Part shown: positions 2,856 to 14,897 of the stretch, in pieces
Position numbering within the stretch: position 1 is the first letter of the stretch
Layout: each line of letters begins with the position of its first letter
Assembly (NCBI GenBank): GCA_964609155.1
Contig: CAZSRF010000002.1
Coordinates: 352 to 64,351, forward strand
Reading direction: 5' to 3'
DNA: 64,000 bases
DNA from: an uncultured Gammaproteobacteria bacterium
GTDB taxonomy: Bacteria > Pseudomonadota > Gammaproteobacteria > JAGOUU01
Notes under the pieces: model-generated
The model's input: the letters and a program-made list of their open reading frames with translations, nothing else
Told to the model about the DNA's origin: nothing
Databases searched by the model: none
Position numbers and translations under genes: made by a program

Positions 2856-4832
2856 TTAGCCTCCGCTGCTAGTATTATTATAATCAATAGTTATAGGGAT
2901 CAATTCCCCTAAAATTGCAGGTGTTTTACCTAAGCGACTGCGATAAATTGCAGTATTTGTTAAGACGCGTTTAATATAATCTCTGGTTTCATAAAATGGT
3001 ACTAATTCAATCCAAATATCAGTCGCAATTGGTTTGCTATCTTTTAACCATTTTTTTACTCGTGTAGGTCCAGCGTTGTATGCTGCGGTTGCAAGGACAG
3101 CATTACCTTTATTATTTTCGAGCATTTTTTGTAGATATACTGATCCTAATCGGATATTAGTTGATTCATTAAGTAGACTGTTTTGATTAGAGTAGGGTAT
3201 TTTGTTTGCTTTTGCCAGCTTTTTTGCTGTTGTTGGCATCAATTGCATTAAACCTAAAGCTCCAGCTCGAGATTTAGCATCAACAATAAATGCACTTTCT
3301 TGTCGACTGATCGCAAAAACCCATGCAGGATCTAAATTATATTTTTTAGCAAATTTTAAAATAGGTTCTTGATACCCTAATGGGTATCTTAAATGCAAAA
3401 ATGCATTAGGTTTATCTTGGGAATTGTTTGAGTATTCTGGTTTGCCAAAATTAACAATATTACGATCATGCCAGTTTAATTCGCTTGCGATATTACCAGC
3501 TATGTATTGCTGCTTTTCATTAAGATTTTTTATAACACTATTCCATTCAAGTCTTGCTAACATGTAACGTTTTAGTTTATATAATTCAATAGCGCGATTA
3601 ATACCGGGATTACTTAGTAATTTTATCTTATCAGATTTATAAGGGGAGGTAATGGCAAATTCTATAGGGCACGGTTGTTTTAAATTACTACAGGCTAATA
3701 AACCATAGTAATTAGTTTTATTATAAATTAGTGAGTATAACTTTTTTGCCTCATTGTGTTGTTTGGTTTCATCGTAGGCACGTGCTAGCCAATAAATCCA
3801 AATGTCTTCTTTTTGTTCTTCTGTGGGAAGTTGTTTAATACGTTTTATCACATTGAACCAATTAGCATTTTTTAAAGCGCTTTTGATTGCTACAGTATGT
3901 AGTTGTGAGTTATAAAATTCTATGGGAATATCATTTAATAAAACCTCAGTTTTTTCATGATCTTGCATAAACATTCTTATAGTGGTAAATCTATAATAGT
4001 CATATTTGTCTTCATCATTAAACTGAAATCTTAAGTTGAGTTCGCGATAATTGCGTAGAGATTGTTCTATATTTTTAGTAGCTATTTTTTTTAAGCTATA
4101 GATGAGTATCTTATGATGAAAATTGTTACTACTATCAAAAAGTTTTACATGATTAATTAAATTAATATTATGATTAACTCGAACCCATAGTTTAATATCT
4201 TCATTCTCTTCATTTGGAAGATATTTCCCTAGTGCTTGTACCAATTCAATGTTATTAGTTTCTATAGCTTGATAGATACGTTTCCATATTAGATCAGAAT
4301 CAATAGTATTGTTAGAAATCCATTTATTAAATAAAAAATTACATTCTTTTGGCCGTGAATCACCTGATAACCAAAGTTCTTGAATGTTATTTGCTGTAAT
4401 TTTTTCGGGACTCGTATTTTCTAGTGCAGTAAAATATAAACATTTTAAACTGGTTAACGTATTTGGTTGGTAATATTTAATAATATCTGACCATCTTGAT
4501 TGTTTTGCAAGATAGTTTATCCAATAATAATTTAAAGTTTTGCTAACAGGAGAATCCTGGTAAATATTGTAGAAATTAGTGATTTTATCAACGGGGTTAT
4601 CGCGTACTTGATCTTTTAATAGCTCCAATTGTAAATAAGGGTAGAGGCTGTAGTTTTTTAAACGTGGATGAATTTTATCTTCAGAACGAATTTTACCGGT
4701 TTCGATTAATTTTTCTGTTTTAAGAAATTCCTGACGCAAAGATTGTATGTTAGCTAATAAAGTGCAAGGTAGGCTTAAGAAAGAAAGCAAAATAACAACA
4801 GTGTATTTTTTAATAACTGAATTAGTTACCAT
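2856..4832 (-). CDS. slt: soluble lytic murein transglycosylase (Slt70 family)
   Basis: 658 aa with a signal peptide and a superhelical N-terminal region. C-terminal SLT-domain signature ESAFIVDAKSRAGALGLMQLMPTTA. Confidence 0.85.
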   Translation of the reverse strand: MVTNSVIKKYTVVILLSFLSLPCTLLANIQSLRQEFLKTEKLIETGKIRSEDKIHPRLKNYSLYPYLQLELLKDQVRDNPVDKITNFYNIYQDSPVSKTLNYYWINYLAKQSRWSDIIKYYQPNTLTSLKCLYFTALENTSPEKITANNIQELWLSGDSRPKECNFLFNKWISNNTIDSDLIWKRIYQAIETNNIELVQALGKYLPNEENEDIKLWVRVNHNINLINHVKLFDSSNNFHHKILIYSLKKIATKNIEQSLRNYRELNLRFQFNDEDKYDYYRFTTIRMFMQDHEKTEVLLNDIPIEFYNSQLHTVAIKSALKNANWFNVIKRIKQLPTEEQKEDIWIYWLARAYDETKQHNEAKKLYSLIYNKTNYYGLLACSNLKQPCPIEFAITSPYKSDKIKLLSNPGINRAIELYKLKRYMLARLEWNSVIKNLNEKQQYIAGNIASELNWHDRNIVNFGKPEYSNNSQDKPNAFLHLRYPLGYQEPILKFAKKYNLDPAWVFAISRQESAFIVDAKSRAGALGLMQLMPTTAKKLAKANKIPYSNQNSLLNESTNIRLGSVYLQKMLENNKGNAVLATAAYNAGPTRVKKWLKDSKPIATDIWIELVPFYETRDYIKRVLTNTAIYRSRLGKTPAILGELIPITIDYNNTSSGG

Positions 4833-5162: not shown

Positions 5163-6113
5163 TTAAAGTGAAGAATTAACATATTTAACACTTCCGATAG
5201 GAACTGGAATACCAAGAAACTCATTAGCTACTGAGTCAGTGGTGTTCCAGTCTACTTTGTAATTCATGTTCAAACCTAATAATTTATCTTTGATTAAGTC
5301 TTTCTTGTAAGAAAAACTTTCACTATCTTCTGATAAAGGCTTATGTGCTTCTAAATAGATATTTTCACCATCAGATCCTACTTTGTAGGGTTCGTTTATT
5401 ATTTTAACAGGAGTACCTACAGGCACAATATTAAATAAGTTTTTAATATCCGGGTTAAATAATCTGATACATCCATGGCTCACTCTAAGGCCAACTCCTA
5501 TTTCCACATTTGAGCCATGCAGTAAATAACCCGGAGCACTTAAGCGCAATACGTGTTTCCCTAGTGGGTTATCAGGACCTGCTGGAATAGAATTAGCAAT
5601 TTTTTCACCTCGTTTTCTATATTCTTCTTTAATGGATTCTGGAACCGTCCAAGTTGGGTTCTGTACTTTACCAGTTACAGTTGCATTAACAACAGGAGTT
5701 CCCCAATCTTTTTTACCAATGCCCACAGGGTAAGTTATTACTTGACCAGTACCTTCAGGAAAATAATAAAGCCTTAATTCAGCAAGATTTATCACAATAC
5801 CTTTACGAGTTTTTGGAAGAACATATCGTTGTGGTATTATAAGATCGCCATAGCTTGGGGACCATGGGTTGTAGCCAGGGTTAGCTTCCTCAAGCTCATG
5901 AAAACCTACACCATAACGTTCTGAAATAGTTAAAAAATTATCCTCTGGTTTTAGTTGATCAGGAGATAATCTAACAATATTGCCTACGATATCTCCATGA
6001 GCAGGTAAATTAAAAGTTTTAGCATATAAAGCTTGCGAGCCTATCAAAGAGCAAGCACTCAATACAGCAATTTTAAAAGCGATTATTTGAGATGACATTG
6101 ATTTATAAGCCAT
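5163..6113 (-). CDS. L,D-transpeptidase with N-terminal LysM domain (YkuD family)
   Basis: Catalytic motif SHGCIRL, an N-terminal LysM-like segment and a signal peptide. Confidence 0.85.
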   Translation of the reverse strand: MAYKSMSSQIIAFKIAVLSACSLIGSQALYAKTFNLPAHGDIVGNIVRLSPDQLKPEDNFLTISERYGVGFHELEEANPGYNPWSPSYGDLIIPQRYVLPKTRKGIVINLAELRLYYFPEGTGQVITYPVGIGKKDWGTPVVNATVTGKVQNPTWTVPESIKEEYRKRGEKIANSIPAGPDNPLGKHVLRLSAPGYLLHGSNVEIGVGLRVSHGCIRLFNPDIKNLFNIVPVGTPVKIINEPYKVGSDGENIYLEAHKPLSEDSESFSYKKDLIKDKLLGLNMNYKVDWNTTDSVANEFLGIPVPIGSVKYVNSSL

Positions 6114-7224: not shown

Positions 7225-8367
7225 ATGTCGCAAGCAACTGTAAGAAAACTAAATGGAGAAGGCTTGGCTGGAGTAACTGCGGGTAAAACTGCTATATCAA
7301 CAGTGGGTAAAGAAGGGATGGGGTTAACATACAGAGGGTACTCAATCGAAGATTTAGCATCTAGAGCTTATTTTGAAGAAATTGCTTACTTATTAATTTA
7401 TGGACGACTTCCAACAACTAGCGAATTTAATAAATATAAAAATAAATTACAATCTCTAAGAACAGTGCCAGAAAAATTACAAAAGGTTTTAGAGCTTATT
7501 CCTGCTAACGCTCATCCTATGGATGTTTTGAGAACAGCTTGTTCCTATCTTGGCACGATAGAGCCAGAAGATAACAAAAATACACCAGCTAATGTGGCAG
7601 ATAGGTTAATGGCCATCTATCCTGGTGCTTTATTGTACTGGTATCATTTTACTAAAAACAATAAAAAAATAGTTACATCTACTAATCAAGATTCTATCGC
7701 AGGCCATTTTTTAGAGTTATTACATCAAAAAGAACCAGATTCATTATGGGTGGAAGCTGTTGATTCGTCTTTGACTTTATATGCAGAACATGAGTTTAAC
7801 GCTTCAACATTTGCAGCAAGAGTTTGTACATCAACCTTGGCGGATGTATACTCAGCAATGACTGCAGCAATTGGCACATTACGTGGTAATCTTCATGGTG
7901 GTGCAAATGAAGCAGCGATGGAATTAATTGAACAATATGATTCGGTTGAAACTGCAAAAGAAGATATTAAAGAAAAACTAGCAGCTAAATACAAGATTAT
8001 GGGATTTGGGCATAGGGTATATACAACTTGTGATCCACGTTCAGATATTATTAAAAAATGGTCTAAAAAATTATCTGAGAATAGTAATAACAAAAAAAAT
8101 CATATACTTTATGCTGTATCAGAATGCATTGAGCAAATGATGTGGAGTGAGAAAAAGTTATTCCCTAATTTGGATTTTTTTAGTGCTTCTGCGTATCACT
8201 TTTGTGGAATTCCAACGGCAATGTTCACGCCTTTATTTGTTATAGCAAGAACATCTGGATGGGCGGCTCATATTATAGAACAACGAGCTGATAATAGAAT
8301 TATAAGACCAATGGCTGATTATATCGGACCTGATGAGCAGGAATTTGTAGAATTAAGCGAAAGATAA
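7225..8367 (+). CDS. prpC: 2-methylcitrate synthase
   Basis: Citrate-synthase-family motifs including GFGHRVY. About 380 aa. Confidence 0.9.
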
Positions 8368-8400: not shown

Positions 8401-9858
8401 ATGTCTAATTTAAGCAGTGCGGATGTTAATATTAAACAAAATTTCGATCAAGAACTTATTGATATTGCTCAATATGTTGATCAATATCAAATAACAAATC
8501 AATTAGCTTATGATACTGCTTATTACTGTCTCATGGATTCAATAGCTTGCGCTATTCAAGCTTTAGATTTTCCAGAGTGCACTAAGCATCTTGGTCCTTA
8601 TATACCAGGCACTATAGTACCTAATGGGGCTCGTGTATTAGGCACTTCTTATGTGCTAGATCCAGTAAAAGCAGCTTATGATAATGGTGTGCTTATAAGA
8701 TGGTTGGACTATAATGATACCTGGCTTGCCCAAGAGTGGGGGCATCCATCAGATAATTTAGGTGGTATTTTAGCTGTGGCGGATTTTTTGTCAAGACAAC
8801 AATTAGCTAATAACAAGTCTTGCCTAACCGTTAAAGATATTTTAACGTATTCTATTAAGGCACATGAAGTACAAGGTGGCACAGCTTTGGAAAATTGCTT
8901 TAACAAAGTAGGGTTGGATCATGTTGTTTTAGTAAAGTTAGCCTCAACCGCAGTGATTACCAAAATGCTAGGTGGAACGTTAAAAGATATAATTAGCGCA
9001 ATATCGCAAGTTTGGGTGGATGGACAAAGTTTACGTACGTACCGTCATGCACCTAACACAGGATCTAGAAAATCATGGGCTGCTGGAGATGCAACCTCTC
9101 GTGCGGTAAAGCTAGCAATGCTTACATTAAAAGGTGAAACAGGTTATCCAAGTGCTTTAAGTGCTAAAAATTGGGGATTTTATGATGTTTGTTTCAAACA
9201 AAATAAATTGAAGTATCCTGATTATTTTAAATTTTCTAGTTATGTTATGGAAAATATTTTATTTAAAATTTCTTTTCCAGCTGAATTTCATGCGCAGACT
9301 GCAGCTGAAGCTGCAATAAAGCTTCATTCTGCAGTTAAAAATAAGTTGTCAGATATTTCTAAGATATTATTAACAACACAAGAACCAGCTATAAGAATTA
9401 TTAGTAAAAATGGTCCATTACATAATCCTGCTGATAGAGATCATTGTTTGCAATATATTGTTGCAGTTGGTTTATTATATGGTGATCTTACAGCAAGACA
9501 TTATGAAGACTCTGTAGCTAATGATCATCGTATAGATGCTTTACGTGAATGTATGATAGTTTCAGAAGATAAACAATTGACTGCCGATTACTATGATCCA
9601 AACAAACGTGCTATTGGCAACAGTGTACAAGTATATTTTAATGATGGCAGTTGTACTGAAAAGGTTTCAATTGATTATCCGGTTGGTCATAAAAATAGAC
9701 GACAAGAAGGGTTACCTTTGTTAGACGAGAAGTTTAGAGCAAGTATAAGCAACTACTATAGTAAACGTCAGTCTACTCGTATCATTGATTTATTTAGTAA
9801 TAAAGAGCAGTTATTAAAAATGCCTGTGTATGAGCTTATGGATAATTTAATAATATAG
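8401..9858 (+). CDS. prpD: 2-methylcitrate dehydratase
   Basis: About 485 aa MmgE/PrpD-like protein. Third gene of the prpBCD arrangement. Confidence 0.85.
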   Translation: MSNLSSADVNIKQNFDQELIDIAQYVDQYQITNQLAYDTAYYCLMDSIACAIQALDFPECTKHLGPYIPGTIVPNGARVLGTSYVLDPVKAAYDNGVLIRWLDYNDTWLAQEWGHPSDNLGGILAVADFLSRQQLANNKSCLTVKDILTYSIKAHEVQGGTALENCFNKVGLDHVVLVKLASTAVITKMLGGTLKDIISAISQVWVDGQSLRTYRHAPNTGSRKSWAAGDATSRAVKLAMLTLKGETGYPSALSAKNWGFYDVCFKQNKLKYPDYFKFSSYVMENILFKISFPAEFHAQTAAEAAIKLHSAVKNKLSDISKILLTTQEPAIRIISKNGPLHNPADRDHCLQYIVAVGLLYGDLTARHYEDSVANDHRIDALRECMIVSEDKQLTADYYDPNKRAIGNSVQVYFNDGSCTEKVSIDYPVGHKNRRQEGLPLLDEKFRASISNYYSKRQSTRIIDLFSNKEQLLKMPVYELMDNLII

Positions 9859-10003
9859 AATATTCAAAAATAATTATTGCTTTCTAGAGTAACAAGAACT
9901 TAGGTAGCAGCAAGCCTCTTATACCTATTAACGAGCAGATATCTTGCACAGAAGCTCTGGGTTAGTTAACAGCTAGTTGAAACTTAATTATACTTGTGTA
10001 TAA

Positions 10004-10636
10004 TTGGTTATTATGAATAAGTTGTACACAATAAGCCAAGCAGCAACCCATTATGGTGTCTCATCCTCTACTTTAAGAAGATGGGAGCGTGAAGGCAAGC
10101 TAATACCAGATAGGACAAAGGGAAAACAACGAAGATATAAACTAGTAGACGAATGTGAATCTAAACTCCAAGTAGCACCAGATAAAAAAGTTACTGTAGC
10201 CTACGCTAGAGTTAGTAGTCACGATCAAAAAGCAGATTTAGAGCGTCAAAAGCAATTACTAGAAATGTATTGTGCTTCGCAAGGTTGGCAATTTAAAGTT
10301 ATTTCCGATCTTGGTAGTGGCATGAACTACAATAAACGTGGCCTAAAAGAGTTGTTGTCGGTAATTTTAAACGGCGACATAAGTCGTTTAGTATTAACAC
10401 ATAAAGATAGATTATTAAGATTTGGTGCTGAGTTAATATTTTCACTATGTGAACGTCGAGGTGTAGAAGTAGTTATTATTAATAAAGGCGATGAACCTAG
10501 TTTCGAAGAAGATTTAGCAAAAGACGTATTGGAAATAATCACAGTGTTTTCAGCTAGATTATATGGTTCAAGAAGTAAGAAAAATAAAAAGCTATTAGAA
10601 AATCTCAAGGAAGCGGCAAGTGTTGTTGGTTCATAA
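10004..10636 (+). CDS. tnpA: IS607-family transposase TnpA (MerR-like HTH fused to serine-recombinase/resolvase catalytic domain)
   Basis: N-terminal HTH (YTISQAATHYGVSSSTLRRWEREGKL). Resolvase catalytic region VAYARVSSHDQKADLERQ with the catalytic Ser. Confidence 0.85.
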   Translation: MVIMNKLYTISQAATHYGVSSSTLRRWEREGKLIPDRTKGKQRRYKLVDECESKLQVAPDKKVTVAYARVSSHDQKADLERQKQLLEMYCASQGWQFKVISDLGSGMNYNKRGLKELLSVILNGDISRLVLTHKDRLLRFGAELIFSLCERRGVEVVIINKGDEPSFEEDLAKDVLEIITVFSARLYGSRSKKNKKLLENLKEAASVVGS

Positions 10637-11801
10637 AATTGAGCTTAAAGTCAATAATAAACAAGCAAATTATTTTGCTAAAGCTTGTGGTGTAGCGAGA
10701 TTTGCCTATAACTGGGCGTTAGATGAATGGCAAAAGCAGTACAAAGCTGGTCAAAAACCTAATGAGATTAATCTGCGGAAATATCTAAATTCTATAAAAA
10801 ACGAACAATTTCCATGGATGTTAGAAGTCACCAAAGTAGCCCCGCAGCAGGCAATCAAGAATTTAGGCACAGCATTTCAAAGATTTTTTAATCATCAGGG
10901 CAAGTACCCAAAATTTAAGAAAAAGGGAATTCACGATTCTTTTCGAGCTGACAATGGCCCAGCTAAGGTTGGGGCGGATGCTGTACAGATTCTTGATAAA
11001 AAGATTAATTTACCAAGAATTGGTTGGGTAAGATTAAAAGAAAGATTGCGATTTACTGGTCAAATAAAATCAGTGGTAATTTCAAGACGCGCAAACCGCT
11101 GGTATGCGGCAATAAGTGTAGATATCACAGAGCTAAACCAAGTGCACAAAAACCAAGGCATTGTTGGTGTAGATTTAGGTATTAAGACACTGGCCACATT
11201 ATCAACAGGTGAGCCAATAGTGGGGCCACGGGCGCACAAACAGTTGTTAACAAGAGTGAGAAAATATTCTAAAAAGTTATCCAGATGTAGAAAAGGCAGC
11301 AAGAATTATAAAAAAGCGAGACTCAAACTTAGTAAAACTCATGCCAAGATACGAGATATTAGAATAGATAATCTACATAAATTAACTACTGATTTAGCAC
11401 TGAAGTTCAATACAATAGGCATAGAAGATTTAAATATAAGCGGCATGGTTAGAAATAAGAAACTAGCTAGGCATATTATGGATGGGTCATTCTATGAATT
11501 TCGACGTCAGCTTGAGTATAAAGCTAAATGGTATGGTTCAACAGTAGTGGTTGTCGGTAGATTTTATCCATCGAGTAAGCTGTGCCATTGTTGTAATACT
11601 ATAAATCAAGAGCTGACACTTAGCGATAGGCAGTGGCAATGCAATAATTGTAATAAGCTACATGATAGAGATATCAATGCAGCTATAAATATCGCCAACT
11701 ATGCAAGGCATGCCAATATGATTGTTAGTACACAGAGCTCCTGTGGAATTTACGCTTGCGGAGAGAAAAGCGCTGGCGCAGCAGTTAACACTGCTGCGTG
11801 A
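10620..11801 (+). CDS. tnpB: TnpB (OrfB) RuvC-like RNA-guided endonuclease with C-terminal zinc finger
   Basis: N-terminus MLLVHKIELKVNNKQANYF is typical of TnpB. It has a RuvC-like split domain and a CxxC...CxxC zinc finger (CHCCN...CNNCNKLHDRDINAAINIA). It overlaps tnpA by 17 nt. Confidence 0.85.
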   Translation: MLLVHKIELKVNNKQANYFAKACGVARFAYNWALDEWQKQYKAGQKPNEINLRKYLNSIKNEQFPWMLEVTKVAPQQAIKNLGTAFQRFFNHQGKYPKFKKKGIHDSFRADNGPAKVGADAVQILDKKINLPRIGWVRLKERLRFTGQIKSVVISRRANRWYAAISVDITELNQVHKNQGIVGVDLGIKTLATLSTGEPIVGPRAHKQLLTRVRKYSKKLSRCRKGSKNYKKARLKLSKTHAKIRDIRIDNLHKLTTDLALKFNTIGIEDLNISGMVRNKKLARHIMDGSFYEFRRQLEYKAKWYGSTVVVVGRFYPSSKLCHCCNTINQELTLSDRQWQCNNCNKLHDRDINAAINIANYARHANMIVSTQSSCGIYACGEKSAGAAVNTAA

Positions 11802-12075
11802 AACTATGTCTCGTTGAAACAAGAATTTAACACTAAATTTGATCACTCTGAACAAGTATGATAAGGTTTAGATAAGTTTGAAAGAGCGGTTATGAGTCCT
11901 TTCTTCGCATTTGAGCGATAAGTACTGACTGAATATTTGCCTGTTGATAATCTAACATCTTGTTTTGTTATCAATCTATATGTTATGTTGATTAATAAAT
12001 ATATTTTTAGTATTTACTATTTTAATCGATTACTGTAAACTACAAAATATAACATGCAGCTATTCAACTAGGTAT

Positions 12076-12930
12076 ATGAGTATATTATCTGAGCATTTTT
12101 CTTTTATAAAACATCTTTGTAATCCAGATAAAAGTTTAGAGCAGGCAGCTTCTGACTTTCAAAATTTTATCATAAAGCATATATATGACGAGAATGAGCC
12201 ATACTCTCTGGATGAGTGTTACTTTTGTATTATAGATATTTTTATTGCAGAGCTATACAGTGAAATAATCCAGTCATTACAACCGTTATCTAAAGAAGAT
12301 CAAAAAAAATTTATAGAAGAATTAAGAGATAGACGTTTAAAAATTGCAGCCCCTGATAAAGAAGTTAGACTTATCTCGAGTATTGCTATACTAAAGTTGT
12401 ATTTCCATGATCATCTTGAAAAGAAACAATACATTGAGAATGTGCAAAAACAAATAGATATTTATATCGAAAATTTTGTAAAAAATGAAACTAAACGATA
12501 TTGTGCACTTTTTAGCACATCTGATTATATTTTTACTGAAGATACTCAAAGGGATCTAGAGCTTGAGATAAGCATGGGGCTTGAACTTGAGAGGTATAGA
12601 GATATATGGGTATTATTATCAGAACGTCGAAGATTTATTTTAATTGAGAATTGGCGGTATTTAATTCAAGAAAGAATACTTGGACATATTGATGCTATTT
12701 CAGCAGGTGATACTCTAAAATTAGAACCCTTAATTGCTACCATGGGCTCTTGTTTTACGGGCAGAAAAAAAATAGAATCAGTTAGCACTTGTGAGAGCGC
12801 TGTTGTTTCTGCAGCAAGAGCATTAGCTATATGTAGAGCAAGGAAGACCAGCAGTTTGTGCGGGCAATTGCCAATGGTGACACAAACAATGATATCAACT
12901 TCAACACAAAGATATTTCAAAATAAGTTAA
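12076..12930 (+). CDS. hypothetical protein with a Cys-rich C-terminus; no recognisable family
   Basis: 284-aa ORF. It is convergent with the HTTM gene, with only 3 bp between the stop codons. Confidence 0.45.
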   Translation: MSILSEHFSFIKHLCNPDKSLEQAASDFQNFIIKHIYDENEPYSLDECYFCIIDIFIAELYSEIIQSLQPLSKEDQKKFIEELRDRRLKIAAPDKEVRLISSIAILKLYFHDHLEKKQYIENVQKQIDIYIENFVKNETKRYCALFSTSDYIFTEDTQRDLELEISMGLELERYRDIWVLLSERRRFILIENWRYLIQERILGHIDAISAGDTLKLEPLIATMGSCFTGRKKIESVSTCESAVVSAARALAICRARKTSSLCGQLPMVTQTMISTSTQRYFKIS

Positions 12931-12933
12931 TGC

Positions 12934-14592
12934 TCATGTTCGCTCGTTAGGGCAGTATTGTATATAATACCAACCGTTAACTTGCCCATAGGGAGTGCCT
13001 TTTGTGGAGTCTTGATTGTAAAGTTGTGGGTACCAGTTATATAATATTTTTATTCTCTTTAGTGGTGGAGTATCGTTCTTTCGGTTTTCTCTTTTGCATA
13101 ATGCCCGAATTAGACAGTTTTCTTTGAAGTAATTATAATTTTTATTTGGGATATTGTAAGAAATAAAATATTTCCACCACCAATTATTTTTAATGGCATA
13201 AAAGTATTCTCGTATGTCTGTGGTTACGACAGGCCTGTAGCCATCAATTGGCCATAATGGCCTTTCATTGCCTGATTCATCTATACCGTAAAATCTTAGC
13301 ATGTGACTAATTGTAGCTGTACGGTTAAAAAACCCCCAGTATTGATCTAGGCCAAAAACTTCTGAATATTCATGAATAATAGGTAATTTGTATTTATATT
13401 TTTCATTATAAGTAACATAATTTATAGCAACTACTACGGCTAAAGATATAGATATAAAAATCTTTGATATTAAAGATAAATGTAATTCAATTTTAATTAA
13501 TTTATTATTAATAAGTTTATTATTGATAAGTTTGTTTTTTAGATTAGTATAGTTATTAAGTTTATTAATATTATATCTAAAATAATTTTTCTGGATATTT
13601 TTCTGGATATTGTCCCAGAATTCTTCAGGTAAGATGATAATTATTGCTACAACACTAATCAATAAAAAAGGGCCAATATATAAAAATGTCCTAAATAACA
13701 GATGTAATCCCAGTAGAACTATAAACCAAAATACTCTTAGATTGTCTCTGATTTTTTTGATAGGAAAAAATAGTACTAAAGGGGTTAAGATCTCTATAAA
13801 TAGTACAGATATAGTTACTAACTGCAATAGTTTGTTTGAAAAAATATCATGAATCAAAAAACCAAAAGGTGTTAAGTAAAGATAATTATGGATAATGTAA
13901 TTCAGTGCTGTATGGTGTACCCACCATTTGTCATCTATATCTTTAAGTAGTGCGCTTAATAAATATAGTAATGCAATCTGTATTAAAATTGCAAAAGTAG
14001 CTACTGAAAAATATTTATTTTTAAAAATTTGTTGATTACTAAGGCTATCAAAAGATAATTTGGCATTTAATGGTAAAAAAAATCCCCAAAATAATAATAA
14101 TCTTAAATAAAGATCGAATCCTGACATAATATAAAGATTGCGATTCTGTAAAGATAGCAGCAAAAACCAACTAATAAAACAATTGAGCTTGGTTTTATAA
14201 CCAATCATAAGAAAAGTTGCTGAAATAAACTGAATAATAAATAAAATATAAAAATATATTTTATTTCCATTTAAGAGATAAACTGAATGTCGCCAGTTAA
14301 GTGGCCATGCAGAATAAAGTTGAATAAGTTCTACTCGGCTAAGCAAACCTTCATCAGTAAAAAACATGGTGATATCTTGGCTGAGATTAAATAAAAAAAA
14401 TAATAAAGTTAATCCTAAACCAATACGAAATAAAGCAAGAGCTCGTAAATCTATGCTAAAAGCATCTTTAATATAATTTTGAAAAATTAATATTATTTTA
14501 TATAAGGAATTTTTTTTATATATAACCAAAGGTACCTTCCAGATCTTAAAATAGGATATAATACTTTTGCAACCAGCTGATTTCTGAAACAA
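12934..14592 (-). CDS. HTTM-domain (vitamin K-dependent gamma-carboxylase-like) polytopic membrane protein; start uncertain
   Basis: N-terminal DLRALALFRIGLGL motif and a multi-helix membrane core typical of HTTM, followed by about 170 aa of soluble C-terminal domain. The annotated ATG overlaps the upstream DCC ORF by 100 nt. Confidence 0.65.
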   Translation of the reverse strand: MFQKSAGCKSIISYFKIWKVPLVIYKKNSLYKIILIFQNYIKDAFSIDLRALALFRIGLGLTLLFFLFNLSQDITMFFTDEGLLSRVELIQLYSAWPLNWRHSVYLLNGNKIYFYILFIIQFISATFLMIGYKTKLNCFISWFLLLSLQNRNLYIMSGFDLYLRLLLFWGFFLPLNAKLSFDSLSNQQIFKNKYFSVATFAILIQIALLYLLSALLKDIDDKWWVHHTALNYIIHNYLYLTPFGFLIHDIFSNKLLQLVTISVLFIEILTPLVLFFPIKKIRDNLRVFWFIVLLGLHLLFRTFLYIGPFLLISVVAIIIILPEEFWDNIQKNIQKNYFRYNINKLNNYTNLKNKLINNKLINNKLIKIELHLSLISKIFISISLAVVVAINYVTYNEKYKYKLPIIHEYSEVFGLDQYWGFFNRTATISHMLRFYGIDESGNERPLWPIDGYRPVVTTDIREYFYAIKNNWWWKYFISYNIPNKNYNYFKENCLIRALCKRENRKNDTPPLKRIKILYNWYPQLYNQDSTKGTPYGQVNGWYYIQYCPNERT

Positions 14593-14897
14593 ATATATAT
14601 TATTTTATTGAAAAAATTGTTTTTTTCAATCAGTTGGGAAAGTTTATGAATACATTTATCGCCATAGAAGATCTGTTCTTTGTAGATTAAAACCATCCCT
14701 TTGTTCAAGTCATAATCATTACTATAAAGGGCATTGGTTAATTGATTATCTATACGAGCATTGTGTAATATTAATAAGGGCATGGCATGTTTTAACTGCA
14801 TTAATTCAACAAATTTATCGCAAAAAGGGCATTCGCCATCATAGATCAAATGATTGTTATACTTTTTGATAACGTCTGTTATGGTTAGACAATCCAT
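14493..14897 (-). CDS. DCC-family thiol-disulfide oxidoreductase (DUF393)
   Basis: 134 aa with a CPFC redox motif near the N-terminus (YDGECPFCDKFV). It sits immediately upstream of an HTTM gene, a known pairing. Confidence 0.7.
   Translation of the reverse strand: MDCLTITDVIKKYNNHLIYDGECPFCDKFVELMQLKHAMPLLILHNARIDNQLTNALYSNDYDLNKGMVLIYKEQIFYGDKCIHKLSQLIEKNNFFNKIIYICFRNQLVAKVLYPILRSGRYLWLYIKKIPYIK

Follow-up and report, generated by a model that had tools for sequence, protein, structure and literature searches.

The analysed stretch of DNA (hereafter the window: 64 kb from an uncultured, low-GC gammaproteobacterium) contains, at positions 9962-11889, an intact and complete insertion sequence (IS) of the IS607 family, 1928 bp long, which is probably functional and would be provided with homing by its TnpB protein and an omega-RNA. 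It belongs to the well-studied IS607 type (ISXfa1/IS607) carrying a TnpB and omega-RNA homing module. The observations that carry this reading are the identity and intactness of the two genes, the exact ends of the element, the motifs at its junctions, the structure and covariation of its right-end RNA, and the fact that annotated IS607 elements have a right-end RNA of the same family. What would otherwise be a vague "IS607-like" annotation is thereby turned into a base-level anatomy, comprising the transposon-adjacent motif (TAM), the ends, the scaffold, the pseudoknot and the guide (Table 1). Little new biology is involved, in the sense that ISXfa1 and CboIStron have the same architecture and, in all likelihood, home in the same way.

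An earlier note on this DNA had described an IS607 element spanning 9960-11900 just downstream of prpD, whose ends could not be read off directly for want of terminal inverted repeats, and had proposed aligning it with other genomic copies. That alignment has fixed the ends. A protein search retrieved a TnpB with 93% identity (P0001) on a 39-kb contig (L082), where the copy lies in an unrelated context, just past a phosphodiesterase gene and downstream of a suf cluster. The two copies align without gaps and with 91.4% identity across 9959-11892 of the window (1934 bp), their flanks being unalignable, and it is this difference of genomic context that defines the ends; within the span of similarity, the limits 9962-11889 were set by the published IS607 convention. 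The previous span was therefore right to within about 10 bp and is now refined, and the position relative to prpD (which ends at 9858) was correctly recognized. So was the lack of long terminal inverted repeats, since only short imperfect subterminal ones are found, with GG at both junctions and without any target-site duplication beyond this common GG core dinucleotide.

At the left, the junction reads CTCTGGG/TTAGTTAAC... in the window and AAAGGGGG/TTAGTTAAC... in L082, and at the right ...GAAAGAGCGG/TTATGAG and ...GAGCGG/TTAGATT, respectively. The same regularities hold among the relatives, which were obtained by different routes: scanning contigs of genomes and metagenomes with single-protein patterns yielded mostly relatives with 35-44% identity and few close ones, and the close relatives came from the protein search and contig look-ups. 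The left junction is NGGG in all seven relatives whose left end is available (TGGG, GGGG, AGGG, AGGG, GGGG, GGGG and AGGG), which differs from the NCGG preceding the guide, and one related element occupies three different sites (L085, L086 and L087). At the other side, conservation ceases directly after GA(G/A)CGG. Among the 24 matches to the first-round covariance model, 20 end in this motif and two in GAACAG, followed by unrelated sequence, while the remaining two (L092 and L106) have low scores, with a probable misalignment of the 3' end; four annotated IS607 elements also end in GA(G/A)CGG, which makes 24 of the 28 model matches inspected.

Several motifs are repeated between the two ends, namely GTTGAAAC, present at 9976 and at 11813, TTGAAACTTAA, at 9977-9987 and inverted against 11872-11882, and ATACTTGT, at 9990 and inverted against 11852. 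To judge from this arrangement, they are probable binding sites of TnpA. A further resemblance was observed in both known copies, in which the right flank after the GG core begins like the left end (GG followed by TTA in the window, covering 9959-9966 and 11888-11893, and GG followed by TTAG in L082, covering 5340-5347 and 7269-7275). This exceeds what the GG core requires, and in more distant relatives the resemblance is limited to GG or GGC. Chance in an AT-rich genome may account for it, or else a target preference reaching 3' of the core.

The two overlapping open reading frames (ORFs) had been taken for a serine recombinase with a MerR-type helix-turn-helix and for a TnpB, and Pfam, NCBIfam and the PDB agree. 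TnpA matches MerR over residues 9-45 (E 7.5e-12) and Resolvase over residues 65-195 (E 4.2e-22), passes the IS607 transposase equivalog model NF033518 (212.7 bits, with a cutoff of 110) and has PDB matches among the catalytic domains solved for TnpAs of this family (6DGC, 6DGB, 3ILX and 3LHK). It contains the sequence VAYARVSSHDQ, in which S68 (within YARVSS) is the predicted nucleophile, and its start is more likely the ATG at 10013 than the in-frame TTG at 10004. Strong homology was likewise found for the ORF at 10620-11801, whose product matches the Pfam families HTH_OrfB_IS605, OrfB_IS605 and Cas12f1-like_TNB (E 4e-14 to 8e-26) and passes the general model of RNA-guided TnpBs, NF040570 (327 bits, with a cutoff of 100). 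TnpB aligns from end to end with ISDra2 TnpB (PDB 8EXA/8H1J, E 6.5e-62), the closest natural structure, given that the only PDB match above it is an AI-designed nuclease (9YYG). The RuvC residues D185, E269 and D351 lie in motifs conserved with respect to ISDra2 (GVD(185)LG, IGIE(269)DL and HDRD(351)), and the CxxC..CxxC zinc finger (C322, C325, C341 and C344) is intact and aligned with that of ISDra2. The protein is thus an ISDra2-like TnpB paired with a serine recombinase, a combination that would fit the exchange of TnpB lineages between the IS200/IS605 and IS607 families. By analogy with ISXfa1 TnpB and CboTnpB, the relatives for which cleavage has been shown, it is a predicted RNA-guided endonuclease.

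Neither gene has a frameshift or an internal stop, in agreement with the previous impression of an intact copy, and they overlap by 17 nt. With respect to L082, from which the window has diverged by 8.6%, there are no indels over the 1934 bp, and the ratio of nonsynonymous to synonymous substitution rates (dN/dS) is 0.068 for tnpA and 0.110 for tnpB. Together with the near-consensus promoter in the left end, these values speak for selective maintenance of both genes.

As for the guide RNA, an omega-RNA had been expected at the right end, roughly within 11650-11950 and reaching 100-150 nt beyond tnpB. The RNA does exist, but that interval was too wide, and only 88 nt of the scaffold lie past the tnpB stop, the other 73 nt overlapping the end of the gene. 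In the aligned right ends of six relatives, a conserved block begins about 73 nt before the tnpB stop, and RNAalifold finds there four helices, with compensatory changes in 18 of their 31 pairs. The scaffold may start about 5 nt earlier than given in Table 1, judging from the 144-nt scaffold of ISXfa1. With a covariance model of our own (R1), significant matches were obtained in some 25 additional loci, which encode TnpBs of no more than 38-44% identity. Nearly all of these matches are on the same strand as tnpB and lie at its 3' end or overlap it. The covariance-model search that had been suggested for this region was hence productive with R1, whereas Rfam offers no model: a scan of 9500-12500 against Rfam 15, at E values of up to 10, found no family matching the right end, and nothing in the whole window reached a gathering score. 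Three weak Rfam matches, to snoRNA and PYLIS models, were dismissed as chance, and a terminator-like match on the minus strand (11771-11783) was ignored, as it lies inside helix 4 and is no more than shuffled sequences predict.

In an alignment of 24 sequences, 95.7% of the cells pair, compared with 26-46% when the partners are slid. A scan of the unpaired columns revealed two further nested helices outside the model that also covary and that, being absent from it, are not favoured by the model fit; such a blind scan for covarying unpaired columns is very noisy, and of its output only the two series of antiparallel pairs in direct succession were retained, both of them being retested. The resulting six-helix structure comprises 41 pairs, of which 38 show changes on both sides (counts that, for four of the six helices, are inflated because the alignment was fitted to the model), with 95.1% of the cells paired versus 31-46% in the slid controls. 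Its covariation score is 0.475, against 0.045-0.086 in those controls, and none of 500 shuffles was as good. In addition, the tnpB codons overlapping the RNA show no synonymous change between the window and L082, while dS is 0.32 elsewhere (P ~0.006), which fits a second constraint acting at the RNA level. The minimum-free-energy fold of the window RNA alone has a z-score of only -2.2 and is partly unlike the structure supported by covariation, and for this reason the comparative evidence was relied on.

R1 also links the right-end RNA to CHARACTERISED elements, because the tnpB 3' ends of annotated IS607-family members match it: Xylella fastidiosa pXFAS01 with 93.7 bits (E 8e-24), Hydrogenophilus with 104.4, "Ca. 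Bealeia" with 96.2 and ISChh1 of Campylobacter jejuni with 77.2, the E values of the four ranging from 1e-26 to 2e-19. The right-end RNA of the window belongs to the same family as theirs, and the model locates it in IS607 elements of several phyla. Two minor observations concern this region. The C-terminal tail of TnpB (SS.G..ACGE.S.G, encoded at 11727-11798) is conserved among relatives; the probable reason is that its codons encode helices 1-4 as well, and the conservation of the peptide may be a by-product of the constraint on the RNA. One metagenomic locus (L138) has, besides the expected match at 3610-3769, a second and shorter one upstream of tnpB (2351-2440, 35 bits, E 3e-7), which could represent either a right end on its own or what is left of a neighbouring element.

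The six nested helices are complemented by a pseudoknot of four pairs between the apical loop of helix 1 and the tail of the scaffold, 94% paired in alignment A3. Only one of its pairs varies: 15 sequences have U:A there and four have C:G, and the latter form one clade, so that they probably derive from a single evolutionary event. ISXfa1 has a 144-nt scaffold and a 17-nt guide, and its pseudoknot was proven by the rescue of U-130A with A-3U (bioRxiv 10.1101/2023.08.09.552727). That numbering fits the pXFAS01 locus exactly, as a single register gives A at -3 and U at -130, which are the nucleotides of the variable pair. From the organism and this numbering, rather than from annotation, we infer that the pXFAS01 element is ISXfa1. 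Given the match of register, the window holds a natural compensatory variant (C:G) of the pair tested experimentally, which independently supports the pseudoknot of ISXfa1.

Directly after the conserved scaffold comes variable host flank, just where a guide had been predicted, past the right end. The predicted guide, TTATGAGTCCTTTCTTCGCA, is unique in the window, and its 16-20 nt compare with 17-20 nt in the literature (bioRxiv 10.1101/2023.08.09.552727; PMC11061315). Bases 11890-11892 (TTA) are still the same in L082, and past them the two sequences are unrelated.

By analogy with published relatives, the transposition chemistry, RNA processing, TAM specificity, cleavage and homing of this element would proceed as follows. 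TnpA would excise it as a double-stranded circle and integrate the circle by a crossover at the GG core within an NGGG site, so that the left junction would read TGGG and the right end would close with GCGG. The promoter of the left end would drive tnpA-tnpB, and the 3' part of the transcript (11729-11889) would fold into the six-helix, pseudoknotted omega-RNA bound by TnpB, while the 16-20 nt of the host that come next (from 11890) would act as the guide. After excision, the rejoined donor site, TGGG plus TTATGAGTCC..., would carry both TAM and target, TnpB would cut it, and recombination with the sister chromosome bearing the element would restore the copy. The occupied site would be spared because GCGG, and not GGG, precedes the guide, the C at -3 of the right end being the predicted mark of "self" that would protect it from TnpB.

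This scheme has well-characterized precedents. TnpB of ISXfa1 cuts targets with GGG but not with CGG, its guide being flanked by CGG, and the region homologous to the right end was sequenced as TnpB-bound RNA (bioRxiv 10.1101/2023.08.09.552727). TnpA of CboIStron uses 5'-TGGG-3' as its integration site, the GG core being strictly required, and TGGG is at the same time the TAM of its TnpB, and the right end finishes in TCGG, whose C at -3 separates self from the excised donor joint (bioRxiv 10.1101/2023.11.20.567912). ISXfa1 (Yoon et al. 2023) resembles the present element in its serine-recombinase TnpA plus TnpB, GGG at the left end, CGG ahead of the guide, and a right-end RNA that shares its first part with the end of tnpB and has the same pseudoknot between loop and tail. 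They differ in that the TnpBs are only 51.5% identical, the scaffold has about 161 nt here versus 144 nt in ISXfa1 (helices 4 and 6 being longer here), the variable pseudoknot pair is U:A in ISXfa1 and C:G here, and the host is a low-GC uncultured gammaproteobacterium. With CboIStron of Clostridium botulinum (Zedaveinyte et al.), it shares a TGGG site doubling as TAM, the GG core, a right end in NCGG with the C at -3 as self mark and a guide immediately after it; unlike it, the present element is only 1.9 kb long and lacks a group I intron. An IStron reading was in fact rejected, since the left end has only 51 bp and no Rfam intron model matches. ISDra2 TnpB (PDB 8EXA, 8H1J and 8BF8) shows the same domain order, RuvC triad, zinc finger and omega-RNA overlapping the tnpB 3' end, yet that element has a Y1 (HUH) TnpA, single-stranded intermediates and a TTGAT TAM, in contrast with the serine recombinase and NGGG junction found here. 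Finally, ISFba1 and other IS607 TnpBs with RAGATH-18 right-end RNA (reRNA) also have about 390 amino acids and a right-end guide RNA, but their 187-nt scaffold lies wholly downstream of tnpB and their TAM is AGGAG or GAGGG (PMC11061315).

The condition of the annotated relatives is uneven. The closest, with a TnpB 60% identical, is on plasmid pBealeia3 of Ca. Bealeia paramacronuclearis (L171, 1029-2265); there, tnpB is annotated as two separate ORFs ("transposase" and "zinc ribbon domain-containing protein"), probably owing to a frameshift, and it still has an omega-RNA match (96 bits) ending in GAGCGG. In X. fastidiosa pXFAS01 (L170, 1256-2725), tnpB and the omega-RNA are intact, and of tnpA no more than the C-terminal third (residues 125-188) can be recognized, so that the plasmid copy looks non-autonomous.

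Some points weigh against a complete, homing-proficient element. Neither blastn nor tblastn finds a second copy in the 64-kb window, and a clean empty-site allele was not recovered at the prpD loci L165 and L166-L169, where the intergenic sequence cannot be aligned across the insertion point. TnpB falls below the cutoffs of both the IS607-type model NF038280 (280.1 bits versus 350) and the IS200/IS605-type model NF038281 (345.3 versus 425), the latter outscoring the former, and as a consequence it is filed only under the general TnpB family. Furthermore, the covariation counts carry the inflation mentioned above, and the pseudoknot is backed by one variable pair and maybe one evolutionary event. 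Could the element then be an immobile relic, that is, a genuine IS607 copy inactivated in this host, either silenced or through a subtle substitution in TnpA, TnpB or the RNA? The single copy, its location in a prpD-to-HTTM segment that varies between relatives and the decay of some relatives (the split tnpB of Ca. Bealeia and the partial tnpA of pXFAS01) would be in line with it. However, 1934 bp without stops, frameshifts or indels with respect to a copy diverged by 8.6%, dN/dS values of 0.07-0.11, and catalytic residues, promoter, junction motifs and every RNA helix intact make it unlikely. A different matter is whether TnpB could have been domesticated as a TldR-like repressor or a defence factor serving the host. 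Although such domestication is documented, here the RuvC triad is intact, tnpB is tied to an intact tnpA inside defined transposon ends, the sister organism has its copy at a different locus and the guide is merely local flank, which leaves this idea barely credible.

Other alternatives concern the RNA. The conservation of the right end might stem from coding and from DNA sites bound by TnpA, with no functional omega-RNA at all, considering that TnpA must also recognize the right end, that both ends share motifs and that 73 nt of the region are coding. Nonetheless, neither a DNA site nor a protein constraint explains double substitutions that preserve pairing at 38 of the 41 pairs, the codons overlapping the RNA are depleted of synonymous changes and the homologous region of ISXfa1 was sequenced as RNA bound to TnpB, all of which renders this view highly improbable. 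The guide RNA could instead be of the RAGATH-18 (reRNA) type of gut Firmicutes, whose systems are also IS607 with TnpBs of about 390 amino acids, and the 384-residue "Transposase" of PDB 8IAZ does match TnpB (E 7e-55). This can be considered effectively refuted: no RAGATH-18 match appeared in the Rfam scan of 9500-12500 at E values of up to 10, there are only 88 nt from the tnpB stop to the element end for a 187-nt scaffold, and the left junction is NGGG instead of AGGAG. A complete and probably functional IS607 element with its own omega-RNA continues to be the preferred reading.

A wider proposal is more speculative and, taken as a whole, rather doubtful. According to it, the right-end RNA would represent a broad omega-RNA family that lacks an Rfam model and extends over IS607 elements of Gammaproteobacteria, Alphaproteobacteria, Hydrogenophilia and Campylobacterota (including ISXfa1, ISChh1 and many metagenomic elements), and the present copy would be active, with a compact 393-residue ISDra2-like TnpB and a short G-rich NGGG TAM; TnpA may, in addition, prefer sites resembling the first bases of the left end (GG followed by TTA), so that target choice would reach beyond the GG core. 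From a practical point of view, an apparently intact TnpB of this size, with a predicted NGGG TAM and from an AT-rich host, could be tried as a compact editor.

Table 1. Coordinates of the element, its predicted RNA features and the adjacent prp genes, in positions of the window.
Feature	Position	Strand	Remarks
prpC	7225-8367		directly upstream of the element region; Pfam
prpD	8401-9858		directly upstream of the element region; Pfam
TGGG motif	9958-9961	+	predicted TnpA target site and TnpB TAM; adjoins the left end
Probable crossover core dinucleotide GG	9960-9961	+	last two G of TGGG
Left end, non-coding, 51 bp	9962-10012	+	94.4% identical to L082 over 9959-10012
Promoter TTGAAA-16-TATAAT	9977-10004	+	near-consensus; 11/12 positions match
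tnpA	10013-10636	+	207-aa serine recombinase; N-terminal MerR-type helix-turn-helix, C-terminal catalytic domain
tnpB	10620-11801	+	393 aa; GTG start after an AAGGA ribosome-binding site
Omega-RNA (reRNA) scaffold, 161 nt	11729-11889	+	RNAalifold; R1 matches at tnpB 3' ends, ~30 loci
Helix 1	11731-35/11741-45	+	nested
Pseudoknot 5' arm GCUC	11737-11740	+	apical loop of helix 1; pairs with 11884-11887
Helix 2	11755-59/11819-23	+	nested
Helix 3	11763-66/11809-12	+	nested
Helix 4	11776-85/11790-99	+	nested
Helix 5	11826-30/11878-82	+	nested
Helix 6	11833-45/11859-71	+	nested
Pseudoknot 3' arm GAGC	11884-11887	+	in the tail of the scaffold, immediately before the guide
Terminal GCGG of the right end	11886-11889	+	GG = second copy of the core dinucleotide
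Predicted guide (16-20 nt)	11890-11909	+	host flank, 3' end of the omega-RNA

Regarding the genomic surroundings, the window is AT-rich (32.6% GC), and the nearest named PrpD comes from a metagenome-assembled genome labelled "Gammaproteobacteria bacterium" (83% identical), followed by Kangiellaceae (~62%). Exact-protein look-ups of TnpB and PrpD gave no match on record, and that of TnpA led only to L081, a 1.5-kb contig from this very locus (100% identical) that is uninformative on the ends. The insertion point lies about 100 bp downstream of prpD, and the comparison with empty sites that the earlier note had proposed shows that the element is absent downstream of prpD in the relatives L165 and L166, neither of which has the sequence of 9960-11900 there, while the precise empty-site allele escaped recovery. 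L165 belongs to the sister organism that is the source of the L082 copy, and its PrpD is 96% identical to that of the window; divergence begins about 33 nt past the prpD stop, some 70 bp before the insertion point, and no left end is present within the 143 nt available downstream of prpD. In L166, whose PrpD is 83% identical, a different 1-kb segment lies between prpD and the gene of the HTTM-domain protein.

The entire segment between prpD and the HTTM gene (about 9892-12949 of the window) is in fact variable among relatives. In the window it consists of the IS and a 284-residue ORF (12076-12930), for which there is neither a Pfam or NCBIfam match nor an exact protein match on record, and in L166 the different 1-kb stretch holds ORFs of 110 and 62 residues. 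Beyond it, a 552-residue membrane protein with a weak HTTM match (E 1.4e-4) overlaps a 134-residue ORF (12934-14897, minus strand). Their syntenic counterparts in L166 are a 538-residue protein without a Pfam match and a DCC1-like protein, and the pair is kept there beside the prp operon.

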